Origin: Candidatus Micrarchaeota archaeon | GTDB taxonomy: Archaea; Micrarchaeota; Micrarchaeia; Micrarchaeales; CABMGC01 | DNA length: 64,000 bases | Assembly: GCA_021791245.1 (NCBI GenBank) | Contig: JAJYWY010000007.1 | Span: 16,340-80,339 of the forward strand | Reading direction: 5' to 3' | Shown: positions 2,433 through 63,512 of the stretch, in pieces | How positions within the stretch are numbered: the first letter of the stretch is position 1 | Layout: each line of letters starts with the position of its first letter | Translations under genes and position numbers: made by a program | The notes under the pieces: generated by a model | What the model was told of the DNA's origin: nothing | Seen by the model: only the letters and a program-made list of their open reading frames with translations | Database searches by the model: none

Positions 2433-5264
2433 TTATGTTGTCTGCTTTTTCCTCATTGGCATGTCTCCGGTTTGCATGTCCATTTTATCCCGCAGGAATT
2501 CCGTGAATATCTTGTCGTTCACTGAAAGCTGCTCCCTAAGTATAGGCTTGTAAACATGCTCCCTTAGTTCTCCGTCTTTAATCTTTATTACTTCCTGGAG
2601 ATATCCATTGAATTTATTTTCAGGCGCAACAGGAGAAGCCATGTATTTTCCAAATGGATTTCCCGTATCATTCTGGAAATCAGGGGCCTCAGTAACTATT
2701 GTTTGGTTAGTTATTGTCTGTACTGCCTGATGCCCATGCCCGATATGAATCGATGCGGCTAATGTTCTCTTCGACACATTTGATGATGCTATTTTGGCAG
2801 GATTGTTTGCAAGTTTATGCCTCACTTCATAATCTGTATTGTTAAGGGTGAACTTCTCTGCACCTATTGACACATAGCTTCCGCCGCCCCTCTTTATGCG
2901 TATTTTCCAGTCTTCAGGGAGTTTTCCAAATTTTTCCCCGCCCAATATATAGCCTTCCAGGAAAATCATGATTGAATTATATATCGCAGTCGATTCATCG
3001 CGCTGTTCAGCACCCTTCGATCCTTGATAGTGGTTTCCTGATACAGCTATTATATAGCCCCCACGATGCAATGTTTCTACCAGTAATTTTTTCATGCTGT
3101 TTGGAAAAAGTAATGGCAATTGTTCATCCATATTCCATACTATATTATCGTGCTGGTGCTTGAATCTTTTCAGCAGCTCTTTTTTTATGGTCTCCTCAGG
3201 CATACCCTCTTTGCGCATGTAATTTTCGAATTGTTCGTATACGCCGTGCTCTGTTTCTGGCCTAGGAACATATTTTGAATGCCCGAGATCTCCGGAATGC
3301 ACATCCCCCCTAAATTCTATGATATGTGGTTTGAATTTTCGTGCATGCTCTGCGGCGGCAGCATACAATGTCAAGTCGCTATCTTCCCCTGCATGTACAT
3401 CTGAAAAAGAAGCTACCCTTATTTCTGCTGGCGCTTCAGGCATTTCAGAATATGCATTTGGAACAAGCGATTTTATCAGGGTGTTGTCTGCATAAAGCAG
3501 GTCTTTATCCTTTATTTCCGAAGGAAGGTGGCTGGAAAGAATTGCCTTAGCCAGTTCAGGGTTTGACAGTCCGAATTTCTCTTTTTCCTTCTTCTGGCTT
3601 TCTATGGAATTGGTATTTGTATGGAATCTTTTCAGAACATCTTCCAATGCCTGTTTTTGCTCAATATCCGCTTTTATCCTTTCGTCTTTTAATCCTTCCT
3701 TTGTAAGCAGTTTGTGCGTCACATTGTCTTTTCCGAATACTTGGATTATGCTTGCTGTTGAATCAAGCACCATTTTCTGGACAGCCATTGTATCTTCGGT
3801 TTTGTAATTGCTAATATACATCTGGGCAAGTTTTTCTACGTCAAAAAATGGCCCTTTTGCAAGAGCTACAAGCGTGCTCATCGATTTGTCAGCCCATGGT
3901 ACCATGGAATACGAGGTATAGCCGTTCTTTCCCCCAACAAGGACATTAAGGGGAGTCGTTTCAAGTTTTTTCTTAACCTTACCCCCAAGATTCGTAGTAA
4001 GTATGAAGTTATTTGGCACAAGGGAACTATTGCTTGTTTTCTTTAGCTCTGATGACGCCATATCAAGTCCGTCAGTTACTATCACATTGAAACTGAAATT
4101 TCCTTTCCTTTTGGAATAAACGTTAGATTTTTCGTACTGGACAATTACCCTCTTGTCCCAGTCAGACATTTCTTTTATCAAAGATTTCATTTCTAGCATA
4201 ACTATTTTATGGATTATATCAGTTTCTTTTTTTGGAATCGGAGGATTTCCTCCGAATATCTCAGTGCGATCAAATGTTTTAAGCATCTCCTTTACAGTTC
4301 CGCTTGTAACTGCGGATTTGCGCACTTTTGTCAACTCCCTTATTGTATTCCCAAGGAATTTTGCCTTCTTTATGGTCACCTCGTACTCAGGAGAATCCGT
4401 AGGGGTATTTTTTAGCTTTTCACGTATTGCTGAATGCTCCTTCCTTGCTTTTGACAAGGCTTCCACTATATTCGTTATGGGGATTTTTTTATAAACCATG
4501 TTGCTCAAATTTCTATAGAGTAAAAGCCTCTCCTTTAAATCCTTCAGTTCTTCGTGGTTTATGCGCATGTTACGCACGATATTTGCAAGTTCCACTGTCA
4601 AGTAGGCTCTTTTTGCAGATTTTTTACTAAGTTCTTTGCGCATATGATTTCTCTCTGTAACAAGGCTCTTTAATATATCCTCCCTTGTTTTTATCTCTAC
4701 CTCGATTTGGTCTATTAAAGGGTCTATAAGATTATAGTTGAATGCGTTGTTTTTTTTAATAAGGCTGCTTTGGGCTTTTACAAACAGTTTCCTAAAAGCC
4801 CTTTTTTGATCTTCTATATTTTGCCATTCGTTCTTGCTAAACGCATAAACAACCTTGCAATTTTGTGGAAGAGAAGCCAATAATCTCTTAAAGTCTTGTT
4901 TTATGACTGCCACTAGCTCATCACGGTTATTTACTCCATCTACAATAACGTGAAGCCTGTCTTCATTTCTTGGCCCTCCCCTATTAATAGCTATCGTGGC
5001 CATACCGCCGATTATGACAGCCATTTTGGGTTTGTCCTTATTTGGTGCGTTCTTAATATAATGGGAAATGCCTATCAGCCCATCTCTGAACATATACTGT
5101 GTACCTCCGGCGAGTTCAGATAGGACAAGGATGTTGTATGGCTCCTGGTCTAATGGCTGATTATTTACCTGCATTTGCTGTGAAACTTCAAGAACAGGAG
5201 AACCTACCTGCATTTGCCCATTTGTTTTATCCCCATTTTCCATGCAACCATAAATAAATGCCAT
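2433..5264 (-). CDS. Uncharacterised 943-aa protein: degenerate metallophosphoesterase-like module, K/E-rich coiled coil, then an intact calcineurin-like metallophosphoesterase module
   Basis: The C-terminal half carries SFSDVHAG, RGDVHSGD, VSGNHYQG and IHIGHGHQ. The N-terminal half keeps strand-like ILVLSELAGG, AVIIGGMAT and VLVGGKNGY without the metal ligands. Its stop is 2 nt from the polD-L stop. Confidence 0.6.
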   Translation of the reverse strand: MAFIYGCMENGDKTNGQMQVGSPVLEVSQQMQVNNQPLDQEPYNILVLSELAGGTQYMFRDGLIGISHYIKNAPNKDKPKMAVIIGGMATIAINRGGPRNEDRLHVIVDGVNNRDELVAVIKQDFKRLLASLPQNCKVVYAFSKNEWQNIEDQKRAFRKLFVKAQSSLIKKNNAFNYNLIDPLIDQIEVEIKTREDILKSLVTERNHMRKELSKKSAKRAYLTVELANIVRNMRINHEELKDLKERLLLYRNLSNMVYKKIPITNIVEALSKARKEHSAIREKLKNTPTDSPEYEVTIKKAKFLGNTIRELTKVRKSAVTSGTVKEMLKTFDRTEIFGGNPPIPKKETDIIHKIVMLEMKSLIKEMSDWDKRVIVQYEKSNVYSKRKGNFSFNVIVTDGLDMASSELKKTSNSSLVPNNFILTTNLGGKVKKKLETTPLNVLVGGKNGYTSYSMVPWADKSMSTLVALAKGPFFDVEKLAQMYISNYKTEDTMAVQKMVLDSTASIIQVFGKDNVTHKLLTKEGLKDERIKADIEQKQALEDVLKRFHTNTNSIESQKKEKEKFGLSNPELAKAILSSHLPSEIKDKDLLYADNTLIKSLVPNAYSEMPEAPAEIRVASFSDVHAGEDSDLTLYAAAAEHARKFKPHIIEFRGDVHSGDLGHSKYVPRPETEHGVYEQFENYMRKEGMPEETIKKELLKRFKHQHDNIVWNMDEQLPLLFPNSMKKLLVETLHRGGYIIAVSGNHYQGSKGAEQRDESTAIYNSIMIFLEGYILGGEKFGKLPEDWKIRIKRGGGSYVSIGAEKFTLNNTDYEVRHKLANNPAKIASSNVSKRTLAASIHIGHGHQAVQTITNQTIVTEAPDFQNDTGNPFGKYMASPVAPENKFNGYLQEVIKIKDGELREHVYKPILREQLSVNDKIFTEFLRDKMDMQTGDMPMRKKQTT

Positions 5265-6458: not shown

Positions 6459-7262
6459 ATGATACTTATAGTTTACACCGAAACCGAGAATATATCCATG
6501 CTCTCAGGGAATGCTCTTTCCGAGATGATGGATCTTGAGGAATGCATTTACATGGGCATGGATGCATATTCAAACCATAATATAATGCTTGTAAATGCAA
6601 ATTGCAATCTTTTGAATGCAGAACAGTTCAAGGATGCGGATGCGGAAATGATTATATTCATGGGCAGGCACAGAAGTTCAAAGGGCGTGTCCTCATTCAC
6701 CAGCCATGCAACAGGAAATTTTACAGGGAATACGGAGTATGGAGGGCTTCCGAATATTTTATGCAAAGCAGAACCAAGAGTCATGCTCTCGCTTCTCAGG
6801 CTGTTCGGCACTACATGCGGAGCGCATAAAGTGACATATGAAGCTACGCACCACGGTCCTTTCGCTAAAGCACCTGTGGTTTTTGCCGAGTTTGGAGGCT
6901 CAGAATTTATATCTGCACGCATAGAACCAAGAATTCTTGCAGAGGCAGTGAAGAATGCGGTATATGCATACACAGAGAATAGGATAGAATACAAAAAGGC
7001 GGTTATAGGATTCAGTGGCTCGCATTATCCAGATAAATTTACCAAGCTTGCGCTTGAAAAAGGATATGCGTTCTCGCACATCTTCCCAGAATACGCAATG
7101 GTTAATAATGGAATAGTATCAGATATGATAGAACAGGCAATTTACAGTACAACATTGAAAAATGACAATGCAGTAATAGAATGGAAGGGATTCAACAGCA
7201 AAGAAAGGGAGGTTATATTGAAAAAATTGGAGAATCTTGGTATGGATTATGAGAGGGTATAG
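6459..7262 (+). CDS. dtdA: D-aminoacyl-tRNA deacylase, archaeal DTD2 type
   Basis: 267 aa with GRHRSSKGVSSFTSHATGNF and YEATHHGP motifs characteristic of the DtdA family. Confidence 0.75.
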   Translation: MILIVYTETENISMLSGNALSEMMDLEECIYMGMDAYSNHNIMLVNANCNLLNAEQFKDADAEMIIFMGRHRSSKGVSSFTSHATGNFTGNTEYGGLPNILCKAEPRVMLSLLRLFGTTCGAHKVTYEATHHGPFAKAPVVFAEFGGSEFISARIEPRILAEAVKNAVYAYTENRIEYKKAVIGFSGSHYPDKFTKLALEKGYAFSHIFPEYAMVNNGIVSDMIEQAIYSTTLKNDNAVIEWKGFNSKEREVILKKLENLGMDYERV

Positions 7263-9767: not shown

Positions 9768-10085
9768 TCATTTTGCAGATTCAAGCAAAATTTTTTTCTG
9801 TTTCCCGCAATCGCAGGTATATATGATGCAACTAGGCGAACTCGCCTTCCTGACGGTGCAATTTATGCCTGGCACAAGAAAGTTGCTGCATCTTTTGCAT
9901 ATTTTGTTAGACACGTCCCTACTCATCTTTACCTTATAATGCGAACTTATCTTCTTTGCGATCAGTGCATACCTTTTTGCTCGTGTTATTGATTCTTGTG
10001 TATTCCTTGTTTCTTCATTTTCGGCCAGTCTGGCAAGTATATTAATCCTTTCCTGAGCTATCATATCTATAAGTTTAGATTTCAT
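9768..10085 (-). CDS. rnp4: RNase P protein component 4 (Rpp21/Rpr2 family)
   Basis: 105 aa with an N-terminal helical RINILARLAENE segment and a zinc ribbon CKRCSNFLVPG...YTCDCG. Confidence 0.75.
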   Translation of the reverse strand: MKSKLIDMIAQERINILARLAENEETRNTQESITRAKRYALIAKKISSHYKVKMSRDVSNKICKRCSNFLVPGINCTVRKASSPSCIIYTCDCGKQKKILLESAK

Positions 10086-10111
10086 AATGGTATATATACT
10101 TTAAATCTAAA

Positions 10112-10846
10112 ATGATTTCCATGAAAGCGCTAGTACTATGCGGCGGATTCGCAACAAGGCTTGAACCGCTTACGTATTTTGTACCTAAACCTCTTCTCCC
10201 ACTTGGAGGGAAGCCCATACTCGACTATATAATAGAGCGCATAGATATTACGAAGAGTGTAGACACCATATATATATCCACTAACAGGAAATTCTTCGAC
10301 CAGTTTTTATATTGGCACAAGAGGCATAGGAAGAAGAACATGAAGCTCATAGAAGAGCCTGCACTGCACGAAGGCGAAAAGTTCGGAGCAATAAAAGGCA
10401 TAATGTATGCGATTAAAAAAGCGCGGATAAAAGACGACCTGCTTGTGATAGCCGGAGATAATGTATTCGATTTTGATGTAAGAAAGCTAATAAATGATTT
10501 CAGAAAGAGGAATGATCCAATTATAGCGCTATATAATATAAAATCGAAGGAGGAAGCTAGGAGGTTTGGAGTTGTGAGGATGTATAATGGAAAAGTAGTA
10601 AAATTTTCCGAGAAACCGAGCAAGCCCGATTCCACTCTTGTCAGCACTGGTATATACATAATACCAAAAGAGGCGCTACACTATTTTGACGAGTATCTTA
10701 GGATGAACAACCATCCCGACTCCCCAGGATACTTCATACAATGGCTTTCAAAGAGGCATGATGTTGCCGGAAGAGTATATCGCGGGAAGTGGTTTGATAT
10801 AGGCACAATAGATACTTATCAGGAAGTCTTCGACACTTATGAGTAG
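10112..10846 (+). CDS. Sugar-phosphate nucleotidyltransferase (glucose-1-P thymidylyl / mannose-1-P guanylyl-transferase-like)
   Basis: N-terminal MKALVLCGGFATRLEPLTYFVPKPLLPLGGKPIL signature of the NTP-transferase fold. Confidence 0.75.
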   Translation: MISMKALVLCGGFATRLEPLTYFVPKPLLPLGGKPILDYIIERIDITKSVDTIYISTNRKFFDQFLYWHKRHRKKNMKLIEEPALHEGEKFGAIKGIMYAIKKARIKDDLLVIAGDNVFDFDVRKLINDFRKRNDPIIALYNIKSKEEARRFGVVRMYNGKVVKFSEKPSKPDSTLVSTGIYIIPKEALHYFDEYLRMNNHPDSPGYFIQWLSKRHDVAGRVYRGKWFDIGTIDTYQEVFDTYE

Positions 10847-11124
10847 GTTATTTTGCGATTGCATGCATTACTGCTTTATCAGCGCAATTGGAGTTTCTGT
10901 CACCGTATTTTAGCGGAAAATCATCTAGACTGCCACAACAGGAGGTGGAATTATTTATGGCCTTTTTTGGCGCATATTGCGGATAAATCGCAGTAAGTGC
11001 CAAATTTCCAAGGTGTTTTTTGGGTAACTTGAAATTCTTGACGTCGTGGTCATTGCACGAATTCGTACCAAATTTATCGCAGCCAAATCAAATGCCTATT
11101 TTATCCGTATCTGCACCTGAAAAG

Positions 11125-11556
11125 TCATCCTAATATTACCATGGTGTTTGTCTTCTTTATCCCTTTTACATTTCCTATATAATCCAATAGGATTTCACGC
11201 AAATGCAAGGTATCTTTAGCTGCCACTTTTATGATAAGGTCGTGTTCGCCGGTTATTATGCTGCCTTCCTTCACATACATTATGCCCAAAAGCTCCTTGA
11301 GCATCTTGTCCTGCGTCTTCCCAAGCCTTTTAAGCTCGTCAACATCGATGTCTATTAGTATATATGCTGATACGTTAAGCCCTGCTTTTCTCCAGTCTAT
11401 ATCTGCAGTGTATTTCCTTATTACCTTCTCCCTTTCGAGCCTCTTCACCCTTGAATGTACAGTAGATACAGGCACCCCAACACTCTTTGATATGCCCATA
11501 TATCTAATCTTTCCATCTTCTAATTGATGTAGTATTCTCTCGTCAAGTTCATCCAT
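11125..11556 (-). CDS. Lrp/AsnC-family transcriptional regulator
   Basis: 143 aa with HTH (LDERILHQLEDGKIRYMGISKSVGVPVSTVHSRVKRLEREKVI) followed by a RAM domain. It is divergent from asnB. Confidence 0.85.
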   Translation of the reverse strand: MDELDERILHQLEDGKIRYMGISKSVGVPVSTVHSRVKRLEREKVIRKYTADIDWRKAGLNVSAYILIDIDVDELKRLGKTQDKMLKELLGIMYVKEGSIITGEHDLIIKVAAKDTLHLREILLDYIGNVKGIKKTNTMVILG

Positions 11557-11687
11557 AATTGTAATTATTCCAATAGTATATATAAATATGTGGTAAAATA
11601 TTGAAAATTATACTCTTTTATTGTATTAAAATTTATATACCATGAATAATACAGTGCCATACACCAAGTAGGCAATGTGGGAGTTTT

Positions 11688-13355
11688 ATGTGTGGAATAG
11701 CTTGTATGTTCGATTTTAGGATCAATAAGGAAAAAGCAAGGGAGAAAGCGATAAGCATGGCTTCACGCATACGATACAGAGGACCAGACTGGAGCGGAGT
11801 ATATTCTGATGCACACGCGGCTATAGCGCATGAAAGGCTTTCGATAGTAGATATAGAAAATGGGGCCCAGCCGCTGGTGGATGATAAAGATAGGATGGTT
11901 TTGGCCGTGAATGGGGAGATATACAACCACATGGCTCTCAGGAAGCTTCTAAAAAGGAAGCATGAATGGAAGACAAAATCCGATTGCGAAATAATACTAT
12001 ACCTTTACGAGGAGTATGGAAGCAAGTGCATCGAAATGCTAAATGGGATCTTTGCGTTTGTTATATACAACCAGAAGTCAGGAAGCTATTTCATAGCTAG
12101 GGACCACCTAGGGATAATTCCGCTCTATATAGGGTGGGATGTTGACGGTGCTACATATGTCGCAAGCGAGATGAAGGCGCTTGAGCCATACTGCAAGAAA
12201 ATGATGGAATTTCCGCCAGGATGTTATTATGACAGCATGCAGAAAGATTTTGTTACCTGGTACATAAGAGATTGGATGGTAAATATTCCGCATAGGAAGG
12301 TTTCACTTCCAAAGTTAAAGCAGGAGCTCGAGAAAGCAGTCATGAGGCAACTTATGTCCGACGTTCCGTATGGGGTTCTTATATCTGGGGGCCTTGACTC
12401 GTCCATAATTGCCGCAATAGCTATGAAGTACAGCAAAAAGAGGATAGAATCGAAAGGCAGAGAAGATGCATGGTGGCCCAGGTTACATTCATTTTCCGTA
12501 GGGCTTCAAAATTCTCCCGATATGAAGTATGCAAGGAAAGTTGCAAGATATATTAACACGGTGCATCATGAAATCGTGTTCAGCATCGAGGAAGGCTTTG
12601 ATGCTATACGCAATGTAATATACCACCTAGAAACATTTGATACAACTACAATAAGGGCAGCTACCCCAATGTATCTCATGGCAAGGAAGATTAAGTCTAT
12701 GGGAATAAAGATGGTCCTCTCAGGTGAAGGATCCGATGAGGTATTCGGAGGGTATTTATATTTTCATAAAGCCCCAAATGCAAAGGAGTTCCATGAGGAA
12801 CTCGTAAGGAAGCTATCACTGCTGAGTAAATATGACTGCCTAAGAGCCAATAAGTCCACTGCGGCATGGGGGCTTGAAACGCGCGTACCTTTCCTCGACA
12901 AGGAATTTCTAGATTATGCGATGTCTATTGATCCGGAGCAAAAGATGTGCAGGGGAGCTAATATTGAAAAAGGCATACTCCGTGAAGCATTCAAGGGCAT
13001 GCTTCCTGAAGAGATATTGTGGAGGCAGAAAGAGCAGTTTTCAGATGGGGTTGGATATGGATGGATAGACTATCTGAAGAAATTCGCCGAGGAGCACATA
13101 ACGGATAAGATGATGGAAAATGCGGGTAAGAGGTTCAAGGTGCAGACCCCTAATTCTAAAGAACAATATTATTATAGGAGTATCTTCAGCGAATACTTCA
13201 AAAGCAACGCTGCGGCAATGACTGTTCCTGTAGGTCCTTCTATAGCGTGCTCTACACCTGCTGCAATAAAATGGAGCAAGGAATTCAAAGGGATGGATGA
13301 TCCGTCAGGAAGAGCCATATCCAGCATTCACAAAAACGGATTTGCGCACTTATAG
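11688..13355 (+). CDS. asnB: Asparagine synthase (glutamine-hydrolysing)
   Basis: MCGI N-terminal nucleophile, SGGLDSS PP-loop, 555 aa. Confidence 0.9.
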   Translation: MCGIACMFDFRINKEKAREKAISMASRIRYRGPDWSGVYSDAHAAIAHERLSIVDIENGAQPLVDDKDRMVLAVNGEIYNHMALRKLLKRKHEWKTKSDCEIILYLYEEYGSKCIEMLNGIFAFVIYNQKSGSYFIARDHLGIIPLYIGWDVDGATYVASEMKALEPYCKKMMEFPPGCYYDSMQKDFVTWYIRDWMVNIPHRKVSLPKLKQELEKAVMRQLMSDVPYGVLISGGLDSSIIAAIAMKYSKKRIESKGREDAWWPRLHSFSVGLQNSPDMKYARKVARYINTVHHEIVFSIEEGFDAIRNVIYHLETFDTTTIRAATPMYLMARKIKSMGIKMVLSGEGSDEVFGGYLYFHKAPNAKEFHEELVRKLSLLSKYDCLRANKSTAAWGLETRVPFLDKEFLDYAMSIDPEQKMCRGANIEKGILREAFKGMLPEEILWRQKEQFSDGVGYGWIDYLKKFAEEHITDKMMENAGKRFKVQTPNSKEQYYYRSIFSEYFKSNAAAMTVPVGPSIACSTPAAIKWSKEFKGMDDPSGRAISSIHKNGFAHL

Positions 13356-17841: not shown

Positions 17842-17970
17842 GCCAGGGTGGCAGAATCCGGTTAATGCGCCGGTCTTGAGTTATAAAATATCAAGAGCTG
17901 ATTTGATGATGCGACACACAGGCAAACCGGTTTCCTCACGGAATTCAGGGTTCAAATCCCTGCCCTGGCG
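17842..17970 (+). tRNA. tRNA-Ser (anticodon UGA) with a ~45-nt intron in or next to the anticodon loop
   Basis: Acceptor GCCAGGG/CCCTGGC, discriminator G, anticodon stem CCGGT/ACCGG, loop CTTGA.., long variable arm TTCC-TCAC-GGAA, T-arm CAGGG-TTCAAAT-CCCTG. Confidence 0.7.
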
Positions 17971-60490: not shown

Positions 60491-60603
60491 GGGCTCGTAG
60501 CTCAGCCTGGTCAGAGCGCTGGTCTTATAACAAACTTCTTAGGAAGAAGTTTGTCCATGAATAAGAAAGCCAGATGCCGAGAGTTCAAATCTCTCCGGGC
60601 CCA
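60491..60603 (+). tRNA. tRNA-Ile-like, apparent anticodon UAU, with a ~38-nt intron after position 37
   Basis: GGGCTCG-TA-GCTC..GAGC-G-CTGGT-CTTATA[intron CAAACTTCTT-AGG-AAGAAGTTTG...]A-GCCAG-ATGCC-GAGAG-TTCAAAT-CTCTC-CGGGCCC-A. Confidence 0.7.
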
Positions 60604-61478
60604 AATCAGCATTAACGAGAGAAAACAGTAAGTCCGAAAACGGAAAAGCAAGCAAAAGGAAAACTCGAATTCTTGAAAAATCTGAACTCGAAGAGCTAAA
60701 AACAGATTTGCAGAGAATTCTGCCAACATTGGCAAAGCACAATGTTGAAGACCTTCGCACTCTAATACACCAAAGTTACGTAAAGCGTTTCAAGAGAAGC
60801 CGTATCCCAAAATACGGCAACCTGAACAAAGGCTTTACGGAATACGAATTGCAGAGGTTCTTTAAGGCAATAGACAGCGACAAGTTCAGGATATTGTTCT
60901 CTTGTCAGGCACAGTTGGGTCTTAGGATAGGCGAGGCTGTAAAGCTGAACGTCAAAAACATCAACTTCCAAACAAGAGAACTGACCTTAAAGACAGAAAA
61001 GGCAAGGATAATTGACACATTGCGCATCCCTGTCCAATTATTCAAACAGACCTTAGAGCTAATAAAAAGCAACGAAAAACGCATAGAAGAATCAGGCGGA
61101 TATATCTTCTTCAAAGACCGCAATAGCTCAAACAGGCTGCCATATCTGAAAATGGACTACGTACGAAACAGGTTCAGGCACTACATTGAGCTAGCGGATA
61201 TAGACCAAGTCTATGACATAAGCGATGAATCCTACTAAAGCCATGTCCCTAGAAGGCTCCACAGGCTCACTACGCACAGTCTACGCCACTATGCCATAAC
61301 CAGTTTCTCTAAGCAAACAAATGGCAACATAGTGCTAACCAGCAGGTTCGCAAGGCATTCCAAGCCTGATACAACCATGACCTACATAAACACGCGCAAG
61401 GAAGAGCTGTATGCGGAGCTGGATAACATGGCAATGGACAGCGTAGAAAGGCTCAAGCGTAGTATAATGCCAAAATAA
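60561..61478 (+). pseudogene. int: Tyrosine recombinase (SSV-type int(C)-like fragment) with an in-frame TAA at 61236-61238
   Basis: The frame is open from inside the tRNA. Motifs are box I GLRIGEAVKL, then after the TAA HSLRHYAIT, ARHSKPDTTMTY. There is no in-frame ATG before the fold; the first possible start is TTG 60708. Confidence 0.7.
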
Positions 61479-61524
61479 GCAGTTACGTGATCTCAGGATT
61501 CTTCAATAGTTAGCATCGAAAGCT

Positions 61525-61788
61525 CTACGCTTTAAAACACGTGCTACATTCCCAATGCTCTACAAGTCTTGGTTTTGCATTTTTATCGTATTCTTTGTTT
61601 GCTATCTTTTCAGTTATGAACTCAGGTTTCCAACTAATAAACTTATGAAAATATCTATCAGTTTTCTTGTAATTCATATTCGTTTTCCCATAATAGTACC
61701 AATCCTTTCCGATTATCTTGCGTGTTTTATCATCAACTTCTACATAGCCCTTTAACCCGCAGATTGCACACGATATTTTATGTTTCAT
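61525..61788 (-). CDS. Cys4 zinc-ribbon protein, unknown function
   Basis: CAICG near the N-terminus and CSTC at the C-terminus, 87 aa. Confidence 0.45.
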   Translation of the reverse strand: MKHKISCAICGLKGYVEVDDKTRKIIGKDWYYYGKTNMNYKKTDRYFHKFISWKPEFITEKIANKEYDKNAKPRLVEHWECSTCFKA

Positions 61789-61821
61789 TTAAGCAGCCTC
61801 ATTACTGCCGTCATCTGCCGT

Positions 61822-62028
61822 TTATAGATACTTTTCAATGTCTTCCCATTTCAGGCCAGTTTGCCTCAGTATCCTGTTCACTATTTGTTGTCTTAGTTCC
61901 TTCTGAGCTATCTGAATCACCGTATGGTGCTCCTTTTCATCCCACAGGACAACATGATCACCTTTCCCCTGCCTTGCAGAGAATCCATAGTGCTCTTGCA
62001 GTATCTTGAGCAATTTGAGTGGTTTCAC
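61822..62028 (-). CDS. hicA: HicA-family mRNA interferase toxin
   Basis: 68 aa with ...GFSARQGKGDHVVLW...IVNRILRQTGL, the YcfA/HicA pattern. Confidence 0.7.
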   Translation of the reverse strand: MKPLKLLKILQEHYGFSARQGKGDHVVLWDEKEHHTVIQIAQKELRQQIVNRILRQTGLKWEDIEKYL

Positions 62029-62054
62029 AGGTCTGAGCGCACCTATAAAATCAC

Positions 62055-62279
62055 CTAGCTTCTAGCGATTAGACTTCTTAGTATAGGCGACTTCATTTCC
62101 TTGCGATTGTTCTTTTCCAGTAGAAATTCGACAGCCGTATCTACCGCGTCCTTCAGTTCGCTCTCAAGTTCGCGGAGGCTTTTAGCCTGATCTTGAACGT
62201 GCAATTCATCAATTACCCCTATGAACCACTTTCCATCTTTGTGAACATCTGCCTTGAATCCGTATATCTCCATCTTCAT
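62055..62279 (-). CDS. hicB: HicB-like antitoxin (N-terminal HicB fold only)
   Basis: MKMEIYGFKADVHKDGKWFIGVIDELHVQDQAKSLRELESELKDAVDTAVEFLL. The ORF extends to 62402, but the upstream part looks non-coding. Confidence 0.6.
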   Translation of the reverse strand: MKMEIYGFKADVHKDGKWFIGVIDELHVQDQAKSLRELESELKDAVDTAVEFLLEKNNRKEMKSPILRSLIARS

Positions 62280-62407
62280 GTCTATCTCTTTAGATATATG
62301 GCAGCCACAGGTATAAAATGTTTCGCTTCTGATAACGCTCCTCTTCATAAGTATGGAACGCAACTCTACATGAAAACAGGACGTAGGGAGTATTTTACCC
62401 ATACGTA

Positions 62408-62705
62408 GGGAGTTTTTTGGCCCTTTCTAGCAGGCTTTTAGGTCGTTTTCCCTCGTAAAACTCCCCCTCAGTCGTGGAACGACCATTTTGTCACGATTTT
62501 GCTAAAAGTATGTAGAGTGAGCCTTCAGCCCGCCATTAAACGCTGCCTTCGGCAGCGAAACGGCGGGCTTCGGCTCTCTATTTCAGCAGCCGTTTTGACC
62601 CCCTACACAAAACGGCGTAAAGGTTCCTTGAACTGCCAAGTTGTTGGCTTAGAGGGAGCCCCTCATTTTGCGAAGCAAAATAGAGCTGGGCGACCCCAAG
62701 GAATA
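62408..62705. ncRNA. Candidate structured RNA (or structured DNA element): a GC-rich multi-helix island of unknown family and undetermined strand
   Basis: Nested helices 62519-62576 (GAGCC/GGCTC, GCCCGCC/GGCGGGC, CGCTGCC/GGCAGCG). Hairpins at 62589-62616, 62652-62664 and 62665-62681. Long-range pairs 62624-62630/62697-62703 and 62408-62416/62457-62465. Confidence 0.45.
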
Positions 62706-62714
62706 GAGATATGA

Positions 62715-63512
62715 CTAGGTCGAGAATATGTATGTCCATGACTGGGCTTCAGTAGAAGTGCCATCGCATGGTGTGGGGCTTAAGGAGGAGATTGTGCCTG
62801 CTTGTACACTGCCAAGCGTTACAACTACTGTGCATACTTCTGCGCCAGTAAGACCTGTGTTCTGATAGAAATCGAAAGTTACTGTGGCTCCCGAAGCTAT
62901 TGCACCTCCAGTATTTCCATAAGCACCGTTTATAGTGTATGTACAGGCTCCACCGAAGAGACCACAAGAAACAGTATCAGTAAAAGTGCCTGCGAGATGT
63001 GGCACTTGGTAACTACTCAACTGGCTTTGTAGGCTTGATATTTCATTATTGTCAGCAGAGAGCTGACTGCTGCTACTGCCACTTTGGGAAGACAGAGAAC
63101 TTACTTCGTTATTAAGATTTTGAACTTGGTTCTGTAAGCTACTAATCTGGGAAGCATCATTGTTTATTGCAGCCTGATCTGTACTTATTGTTGAGCCATC
63201 AGAAGATACTTGATTGTTTAGACCTGCGATTGTGCTGTTTTGAGTCGAAACTTCATTGTTCAAAGAGGAAATATGTGAATTAGCAGAAGAGAGTTGCGCA
63301 GTTGTATTAGACAACTGACCTTGGGTTGTAGAGAGACTACTGTTTAGGAGTAATGCGTATATTATTGCTAGAACAACGACCACAGCCAATATACCTATGA
63401 CTATATTTTTTGTGTTAGAAGGCGAAGAACTAGCATGTGTAGTATGATGAACCTTTGGTTCTTCTTGCTCAGAAGTATCTTGGAGAGGTTTCTTTGAAGC
63501 CATTAAATCCAA
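62715..63512 (-). CDS. Membrane-anchored Ser/Asn/Gln-rich coiled-coil repeat protein with a Cys-containing C-terminal globular domain
   Basis: TM segment IVIGILAVVVVLAIIYALLL, then repeats of the type ISSLNNEVSTQNSTIAGLNNQVSS / ISSLQNQVQNLNNEVSSLSS / ISSLQSQLSS. Confidence 0.55.
   Translation of the reverse strand: MDLMASKKPLQDTSEQEEPKVHHTTHASSSPSNTKNIVIGILAVVVVLAIIYALLLNSSLSTTQGQLSNTTAQLSSANSHISSLNNEVSTQNSTIAGLNNQVSSDGSTISTDQAAINNDASQISSLQNQVQNLNNEVSSLSSQSGSSSSQLSADNNEISSLQSQLSSYQVPHLAGTFTDTVSCGLFGGACTYTINGAYGNTGGAIASGATVTFDFYQNTGLTGAEVCTVVVTLGSVQAGTISSLSPTPCDGTSTEAQSWTYIFST

Follow-up and report, generated by a model that had tools for sequence, protein, structure and literature searches.

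What is the gene-free, G+C-rich island at positions 62280-62714 of this stretch of DNA from a Candidatus Micrarchaeota archaeon? The island lies within an integrated element that carries a tyrosine integrase gene. The whole stretch of 64,000 nucleotides (nt) is called the window here, and coordinates are those of the window unless they follow a locus label such as L001. An earlier note had treated the 435-nt island as one unit, and had suggested that it might be an element RNA standing on its own, or else a structured DNA site (for instance, a replication origin). Alignment with homologs reduces the object to be explained: 62345-62706 (about 360 bases) is, on this evidence, a discrete conserved non-coding module built of two parts, and the rest of the island towards hicB (62280-62344) is an unconserved spacer. 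Both suggested identities survive. We tentatively favour, at somewhat less than an even chance, an element-borne structured RNA that would be made on the integrase strand and would serve the element itself.

All five helix items listed in the earlier note were found by direct reading of the sequence, and a repeat search of the window gives its 9-bp pairs as 100% complementary. The island folds better than shuffled sequence on either strand. For 62400-62714, the + strand gives -116.5 kcal/mol against -91.3 +/- 5.3 for shuffles (z -4.8; 0/100 shuffles as good), and the - strand gives -129.3 kcal/mol (z -6.6; no shuffle as good). The rise in G+C is real, although "markedly GC-rich" slightly overstated it: the island has 52-55% G+C against a window mean of 41%, and the module 47-55% overall. 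It is the second-highest 200-nt G+C peak in the 64 kb, behind a tRNA. The open reading frames (ORFs) at 62499-62714 (+) and 62578-62739 (-) have no family match. No reading frame is conserved in the homologs, where 1-2-nt indels fall within the 71-codon ORF; L016 and L018 have no ORF of at least 50 codons at the module, and L019 has one in another frame. A search of the whole window against Rfam at the gathering threshold gives six tRNAs only. With Rfam 15 at E<=10, 62100-62900 gives two chance-level matches only (ceN39, 14.8 bits; U7, 13.1 bits), and the eleven homologous loci give tRNAs only. The description of the island as a structured, non-coding stretch outside Rfam and within an integrated element is thus upheld by folding, by covariation (below) and by the Rfam result.

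The module is present in 10 other Micrarchaeota contigs at 70-93% identity; the neighbouring genes differ, and only the module aligns. A 20-mer from the apex of the main hairpin, used to scan one genome per species, found 13 loci, four of them from Candidatus Micrarchaeota metagenome-assembled genomes. These four align only from 62345/62363 to ~62703/62706, with 74-92% identity and unalignable flanks. L016, L018 and L019 align over 62345-62706 at 84-92%; L021 and L028 align in part, L021 over ~62437-62660. A metagenome scan with a 24-mer gave one extra locus only (L028), and nhmmer and covariance-model matches cover the 62345-62706 unit in L029, L030, L032, L040 and L042. Plasmid and phage collections searched by blastn gave chance 38-nt matches only, viral contigs gave no match to one protein query and four DNA patterns, and a literature search found no description of the module or its element. 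The dataset comprises about eleven distinct module versions; the alignment of the most diverged (L021, L028, L040) is partly manual.

Conservation of the module is as strong as, or stronger than, that of the integrase gene at the nucleotide level. Between the window and L016, the module is 89% identical and the integrase 73%. The order is reversed between L016 and L030 (integrase 86%, module 81%), and this incongruence points to recombination between the two parts. L018 matches the window in synteny: both have SRP54, an intron-containing tRNA and the integrase, which is 93% identical at the nucleotide level. L001, a metagenome contig with the same genes, is 99% identical to the window from 62363 rightwards; leftwards, hicBA is replaced by another gene. 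Over 1.6 kb, L001 shows five differences from the window, all of them within 62396-62434 (39 nt, in the left domain), beside the point of complete divergence at 62363.

The right half of the module (62519-62706) is, judged by its substitutions, a chain of 6-7 hairpins with a genuinely selected fold (Table 1). A covariance model was built from six sequences and aligns ten versions. The fit of this alignment is to the structure; 96.7% of its cells are paired, and 24/51 pairs are changed on both sides. The corresponding number of pairs is 6.0 +/- 1.7 in shuffles (0/500 reach 24) and 1-5 in slid controls. When six sequences were aligned by MAFFT without regard to structure, 6 pairs were changed on both sides vs 0-1 in controls. 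On either strand, RNAalifold arrives de novo at the same helices. The right half acts as a folded single strand, because its pairing is maintained by compensatory substitutions. The homologs and covariation for which the earlier note had proposed to look are therefore present, and the hairpins are under selection. This is the covariation expected of a structured RNA; folded DNA would give the same result.

Stem variants are found in most of these hairpins. The 62589-62616 stem also occurs as GGCTTTTTG/CAAAAAGCC, GACCACTTTTG/CAAAAGTGGTC and GCCGATTTTG/CAAAATCGGC. The 62635-62648 stem occurs as GCTAG/CTAGC, GCCAT/ATGGC, ACCAA/TTGGT and GCTTAG/CTAAGC, with 4/5 pairs changed on both sides, and variants of the 62665-62681 stem include CCTTGC/GCAAGG, GCAAGC/GCTTGT, GCAGC/GCTGT and CTAATAGGC/GCCGTGATTAG. 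Loops are fixed while stems vary: C-TTCG-G, GTTG, GAA within GCGAAGC (kept in 9/11 versions) and the C-rich loop of 62589-62616, which is kept even in the distant L033. The 62652-62664 hairpin is neutral on pairing because its GGG/CCC core is invariant. TTCCTTG/CAAGGAA pairs in 94% of cells; this closing pairing is plausible but not proven, because the arm sequences hardly vary. In L039, the equivalent of the 62589-62616 hairpin (7230-7262) has a G-rich loop (GGCGGGG); all other versions, including the close relative L040, have a C-rich one. A pseudoknot of the C-rich loop (62598-62606) with GTAGGG repeats was considered and rejected; by eye, a perfect 6-bp match is present in 3/9 homologs only.

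Apart from the integrase, the module is the only conserved part of these elements. The L018 integrase has >540 relatives at E<=1e-20, and contigs were fetched for six integrase clusters out of these. Five of the six carry at least part of the module directly downstream of the integrase on the same strand; in the sixth (L033, L036), there are weak model matches only. L039, a sister contig of the L040 cluster, matches the model at 29.6 bits, and similar hairpins can be seen by eye in L033 and L039. In nine of ten elements, module and integrase point the same way. The simplest elements (L030, L032) have no insert, and their module starts, on the integrase strand, right at the stop codon of that gene. 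The L030 integrase occupies 10001-10900 and the island begins at 10872; the stop codon thus lies within the module's left end (...ATGGAGCGCAACTCTACATGA). The window retains this stop-codon sequence as a relic at 62353-62373. From these comparisons, the original arrangement is one in which the module begins at the integrase stop codon, and cassettes were inserted later between the two.

The cassettes differ between elements and occur in either orientation. They encode HicAB in the window, ParE/RelE in L018, PIN plus MazE in L019 and L042, and DUF4258/DUF2283 in L029; L016 and L001 have an unassigned gene pair at this place. The insertion intervals are 61479-62344 in the window, 3556-4044 in L018, 76-755 in L019, 4200-4877 in L042 and 10899-11531 in L029. 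Beyond the module, the genes of different elements are unrelated. The L018 element runs straight into host genes; its ~1.9 kb comprise the integrase, the module and, between them, a ParE-type toxin gene plus a small ORF without assignment. The elements thus form a family of small mobile elements of Micrarchaeota that encode a tyrosine integrase and insert into tRNA genes. Every integrase adjoins a tRNA gene: in six loci this is tRNA-Val(CAC), the window and L018 have an intron-containing tRNA, and L032 has a different one. The window integrase is a recent nonsense pseudogene, because its L018 ortholog, which is intact, has glutamine at the position of the in-frame TAA; the adjoining module is nevertheless intact.

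The left half (62345-62518) is conserved mainly as sequence. By its repeat content it is an array of short iteron-like repeats, direct and inverted, with weak structural support. Two direct repeats are spaced by 22 nt (62381-62402, 62403-62424), which agrees with the tandem repeats (~17-22 bp) of iteron-type origins. Their core, ACGTAGGGAGT, is found nowhere else in the 64 kb. Related repeats are present in all homologs; in place of the core, these have GTGGGGAGT, TGTGGAGT or GGTAGAGT at corresponding positions, and TCTCTACATG occurs in other elements. The inverted repeat copy in the left domain is AAAACTCCCCC. The repeat ATGTAGAGT also has an inverted copy, at 62363-62371; 62363-62371 and 62510-62518 could form a long-range helix closing the left domain. 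The partner of 62363-62371 is absent in L042 and L028, so this pairing is not universal. The GGGAGT/ACTCCC hairpin (62408-62465) is supported weakly: its arms are almost invariant, and there is one compensatory change, from GAGT/ACTC to GACT/AGTC (L032c1, L021c1). Unrelated stems take the position of the 62471-62483 hairpin in L028, L042 and L029. Tandem duplications of the left domain are present in L021 (3765-3863), L032 (10759-10938) and L029 (11580-11856).

Table 1. Features of the module, of its surroundings in the window and of the integrase clusters
Feature	Coordinates	Strand	Remarks
Whole module: left repeat domain + right hairpin domain	62345-62706	+	Sole interval aligning to other species
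Relic of integrase 3' end, TCATAAGT ATGGAACGCAACTCTACATGA	62345-62373	+	In L030 the same sequence encodes integrase C-terminus ...MERNST + stop
ACTCTACAT, inverted copy of 62510-62518 repeat	62363-62371	+	100% complementary 9-mer pair; both copies unique in window
Two tandem 22-nt repeats, core ACGTAGGGAGT	62381-62424 (cores 62381-91, 62403-13)	+	Direct-repeat family
Hairpin GGGAGTTTT / AAAACTCCC	62408-16 / 62457-65	+	Second repeat + inverted copy; 40-nt interior with invariant TTTAGG..CGTTTT
Small hairpin GTCGT-GGA-ACGAC	62471-62483	+	Replaced by CCTAT-GAA-ATAGG in L028
A/T palindrome ATTTTGCTAAAAGT, then repeat ATGTAGAGT; domain boundary	62496-62518	+	All homologs: TTTTnnnAAA plus TGTAGAGT/TGTGGAGT
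Extended three-part hairpin, C-TTCG-G cap	62519-62576	+	Compensatory variants in all three helices
Outer helix GAGCC/GGCTC	62519-23 / 62572-76	+	Variants AAAGCC/GGCTTT, GCAGCC/GGCTGC
Middle helix GCCCGCC/GGCGGGC	62528-34 / 62562-68	+	Variants GACCGCC/GGCGGTC, GCCTGCC/GGCAGGC
Apical helix CGCTGCC-TTC-GGCAGCG	62541-57	+	Stem variants GTCGCC/GGCGAC, GACACC/GGTGTC
Hairpin GCCGTTTTG / CAAAACGGC	62589-97 / 62608-16	+	C-rich loop ACCCCCTACA
Possible closing helix TTCCTTG/CAAGGAA around three hairpins	62624-30 / 62697-703	+	Arms kept in every homolog
Hairpin GCCAA-GTTG-TTGGC	62635-62648	+	Five paired versions
Hairpin GAGGG-AGC-CCCTC	62652-62664	+	Core GGG/CCC invariant; loop AGC or AGA
Hairpin ATTTTGC-GAA-GCAAAAT, heptamer GCGAAGC inside	62665-62681	+	Five other stem versions
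Unpaired conserved stretch AGAGCTGGGCGACCC	62682-62696	+	Invariant in six close homologs; GCGACCC or TGACCC core in distant ones
Intron-containing tRNA (integration target)	60491-60603	+	Rfam tRNA match, 56.9 bits
Tyrosine integrase gene	60708-61478	+	Phage_integrase domain; two ORFs in one frame, in-frame TAA 61236-61238
hicA	61822-62028	-	HicA_toxin domain
hicB (putative)	62055-62279	-	With hicA forms cassette between integrase and module
L030, L032, L042			Full module downstream of integrase, same strand
L040			Right domain only downstream of integrase, same strand; second copy 4 kb away
L029			Two left-domain copies downstream of integrase before contig end
L033, L036 (sixth cluster)			Weak model matches only, 18.6 bits

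The RNA is favoured because the module is a discrete unit, linked to an integrase, selected for pairing, constrained and non-coding. An RNA also fits because the C-UUCG-G cap is fixed over a covarying stem, the G+C island stands in a 41% G+C genome, and both the wobble pairs and the folding of diverged homologs point to the + strand. Counted by hand in helices read from the sequences, there are 13 G.U vs 4 A.C pairs on the + strand (8 vs 3 in the right domain), and the diverged homologs fold 4-10 kcal/mol better on +. The strand, which the earlier note had left unresolved, thus leans to + (the integrase strand) and is not settled. The functional reading is drawn from anatomy and linkage. Transcription of the + strand would start by read-through or in the variable upstream spacer, and would yield a stable structured RNA of about 190-340 nt serving the element and not the neighbouring genes. 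Such an RNA might act in maintenance, copy control or priming of the excised circle, or in control of the integrase. The left repeats would serve in protein binding or regulation, with the C-rich hairpin loop (62598-62607) as a candidate surface for contacts. Mobile elements with structured RNAs are already known. The int-alpA motif, ROOL and GOLLD are structured RNAs of bacteria and phages in Rfam; they have no known function and are found on mobile elements near integrase or tRNA genes. Like them, the module is a conserved multi-helix unit close to an integrase and a tRNA on an integrated element, and was found by comparative analysis. Unlike them, it is archaeal (DPANN), has no Rfam match and has a repeat array attached.

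Several observations weigh against an RNA from this strand. The pairs are almost purely Watson-Crick; an automatic count in the model alignment, where some columns are misaligned, gives 430 Watson-Crick, 5 G.U and 5 A.C cells. The consensus fold energy (RNAalifold) is -54.8 on + and -58.4 on -, and the window copy itself folds better on the - strand. A strand call from energies was rejected; per-sequence minimum free energies and RNAalifold disagree. By eye, no conserved archaeal TATA box or B recognition element was found at a usable distance in the module, and a promoter at the A/T palindrome (62496-62509) was rejected, as the TATA spacing puts the start inside the main hairpin. The T6 run at 62411-62418 on + would tend to halt upstream read-through before the right half. 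The three helices proposed for the left domain are 77% paired, with little covariation, comparable to controls; a conserved fold of this domain is not convincingly above controls. In L021, the module appears inverted relative to the nearest integrase and is far from it. Finally, the GCGAAGC heptamer is a hyperstable mini-hairpin as DNA. A function at the DNA level stays alive because the pairs are almost purely Watson-Crick, the repeats resemble iterons, GCGAAGC is conserved and the module seems not to depend on transcription of its neighbours.

It is quite possible, if on the doubtful side, that the module is a cis-acting DNA site of the excised circle: a replication origin, a single-strand initiation site or a packaging signal. 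A DNA-binding protein would then recognise the left repeats as iterons, and the hairpins of the right half would form where the DNA is single-stranded or unwound. The site would be used by machinery of the host or of a helper element, as many carriers have no replication gene. Iteron-type plasmid origins contain 22-bp direct repeats bound by Rep. The module resembles them in its direct repeats, about two helical turns apart (22 nt) with inverted copies, in their variable number and in the addiction cassettes close by. Within a unit, the repeats change in concert (L032 has TGTGGAGT three times, the window has GTAGGGAGT), L039 and L040 hold six copies of TCTCTACATG in both orientations, and the left domain is duplicated in L021, L029 and L032. 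Fold energies are alike on both strands, pairing is near-pure Watson-Crick, GCGAAGC is conserved, and the function of the module seems independent of orientation as well as of neighbouring transcription. As the sole conserved part besides the integrase, an origin would explain elements as tiny as that of L018. Unlike iteron origins, the module has no Rep gene, has 2-3 repeats per unit, and adjoins a covarying hairpin domain of RNA-like character. It is G+C-rich and has no internal A/T-rich unwinding region; some loci have A/T-rich flanks. Pfam and PHROGs give no Rep, primase or helicase family among the element proteins, which leaves no obvious reader for repeats that differ from element to element. 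The UUCG-capped hairpin and the possible helix closing several hairpins are more typical of RNA, and the wobble count leans to one strand.

A precedent for a DNA site exists in the archaeal plasmid pRN1, in which a stem-loop of ~100 nt downstream of orf904 is the putative origin (PMC4234260). In both cases, a conserved stem-loop lies directly downstream of a key enzyme gene of an archaeal mobile element, and structural integrity counts over sequence. pRN1 encodes its own primase-polymerase/helicase and a repressor, whereas the elements described here have an integrase and no replication protein. The module is also three times larger, with many hairpins and a repeat array. Stem-loop and iteron origins are already known; what is new, on this comparison, is the module family, with its build of two parts and its link to an integrase of archaea. 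It is also conceivable, though unlikely, that integrase and module together make up a complete minimal mobile element, with the module as its second essential component. It would then be either an RNA or folded-DNA origin that lets host or helper enzymes copy a circle without Rep, or a nucleic-acid partner which the tyrosine integrase needs for recombination or its control.

The module might instead be the 3' untranslated region or terminator-insulator of the integrase mRNA, its hairpins and T-run ending and protecting the transcript without a function of their own. It does begin at the integrase stop on the same strand in L030 and L032, with a T6-T7 run 40-60 nt past that stop. However, it is fully conserved when cassettes of either orientation intervene (0.4-0.9 kb) and beside the pseudogene integrase of the window, its L021 copy is inverted and far from the integrase, and 360 nt with about 10 helices and conserved loops exceed the needs of a terminator; we consider this account improbable. 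Strict genetic linkage of a recombinase gene with a structured non-coding module would also suit a guide or partner RNA whose loops pair with the tRNA target or attachment site. The bridge RNA of IS110 is such a case: it lies 5' of a DEDD-type recombinase gene, moves with it, and has loops complementary to target and donor. Here the enzyme is a tyrosine integrase, the module is 3' of its gene, and complementarity to the attachment site was not found. In seven elements, the longest exact matches between the module (either strand) and tRNA or attachment site are 6-11 nt; shuffled controls have a mean of ~8 and a maximum of 11-13. Modules from L016 (tRNA-Val) and L018 (intron-containing tRNA) are 90% identical, and no block of differences matches the targets. 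A guide RNA is therefore very improbable.

The remaining identities have almost no probability left. In the window, the module adjoins hicB and the stop codon of a coiled-coil gene, and the earlier note had suggested a hicBA leader or a 3' domain of that gene. The leader is contradicted by L001, where the module is 99% identical and a different gene replaces hicBA, and by homologs that adjoin other genes; these also contradict the 3' domain, and homologs of the coiled-coil gene have no such island downstream. A small protein gene is countered by the lack of ORF conservation, and chance is excluded by fold z-scores and covariation. The module is no miniature inverted-repeat transposable element, as it is single-copy in the 64 kb, its ends are not complementary and its context is always an integrase-bearing element. 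A type III toxin-antitoxin RNA (tandem ~36-nt repeats upstream of a ToxN-type toxin) was also rejected; there are two 22-nt repeats only, and the toxins are type II (HicA, ParE/RelE, PIN). Integron attC sites and the attP site of CTX phage are folded single-stranded DNA substrates of tyrosine recombinases. The elements share with these a tyrosine recombinase, hairpins conserved in structure and toxin-antitoxin cassettes that accumulate by the integrase. Unlike attC cassettes, those described here are not each bounded by a hairpin, and the recombination site is in the tRNA 3' end on the other side of the integrase gene. An integron-like attI/attC array was rejected, as there is one module per element and the intervening cassettes have no further copies.

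Some loci contain additional copies. The second L040 module (~11300-11700) is preceded by another relic of an integrase 3' end, which suggests tandem elements or decayed copies. L019 has, at 3505-3566, a second copy (60-95 nt) of the module's left end and upstream spacer, adjoining a host M13 peptidase gene. It was considered as a cassette recombination site and rejected; the upstream spacer is duplicated too, so that it is probably what is left of a second, decayed element.

The order of genes in the window is tRNA, integrase, a small zinc-finger-like ORF, hicA, putative hicB, the island and, on the opposite strand, the coiled-coil protein. The window, which is archaeal, also carries intron-containing tRNAs, the SRP54 gene and a DRG-type GTPase. 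Two long intron-containing tRNA genes (60491-60603, 113 nt; 17842-17970, 129 nt) were found by Rfam and missed by ARAGORN. By eye, the anticodon loop of the former is CUUAUAA (UAU, an isoleucine anticodon, unusual in archaea). The coiled-coil protein (265 amino acids, 62715-63512) has an N-terminal membrane anchor, a Ser/Gln/Asn-rich coiled coil and a Cys-containing C-terminal domain; homologs of its gene are 35-43% identical, lie in unrelated contexts and have downstream gaps unlike the module. L001 shows the rest of the element up to the tRNA relics, and the element length is therefore put at ~5.4 kb. Its genes there are a winged-helix gene, a 169-amino-acid membrane protein and a 486-amino-acid ORFan, followed by two tRNA 3'-end relics. 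These relics (L001 4008-4047 and 4105-4136; window-equivalent ~65990-66120) stand in tandem and mark the element's right end, which suggests successive integrations. A short ORF (L001 3962-4177) crosses both and may be the detached N-terminal piece of an SSV-type integrase. The 486-amino-acid protein (L001 2371-3831; window-equivalent ~64355-65815) has no relative but itself among 5.8 billion clustered proteins. It was discarded as a search anchor, being an ORFan and unrelated to the 482-amino-acid protein which adjoins the L032 module.

Hardly any mobile elements or non-coding RNAs have been characterised in DPANN archaea, Micrarchaeota included. Ten or more species-level genomes contain the module, which is under as much constraint as the integrase gene and shows clear covariation; it can thus serve as a marker for locating these elements and as an object for experiments. 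The locus is also a recurrent insertion point of toxin-antitoxin cassettes, and may show how archaea capture them. If the module is an RNA, it would represent a new class of RNA in archaea, one linked to a recombinase. If it is an origin or initiation site, it would account for the persistence and spread of integrase-only elements (<2 kb) that lack a replication gene. A minimal element made of integrase and module, in either form and if true, would work by a mechanism that has so far not been reported among integrative elements of archaea.

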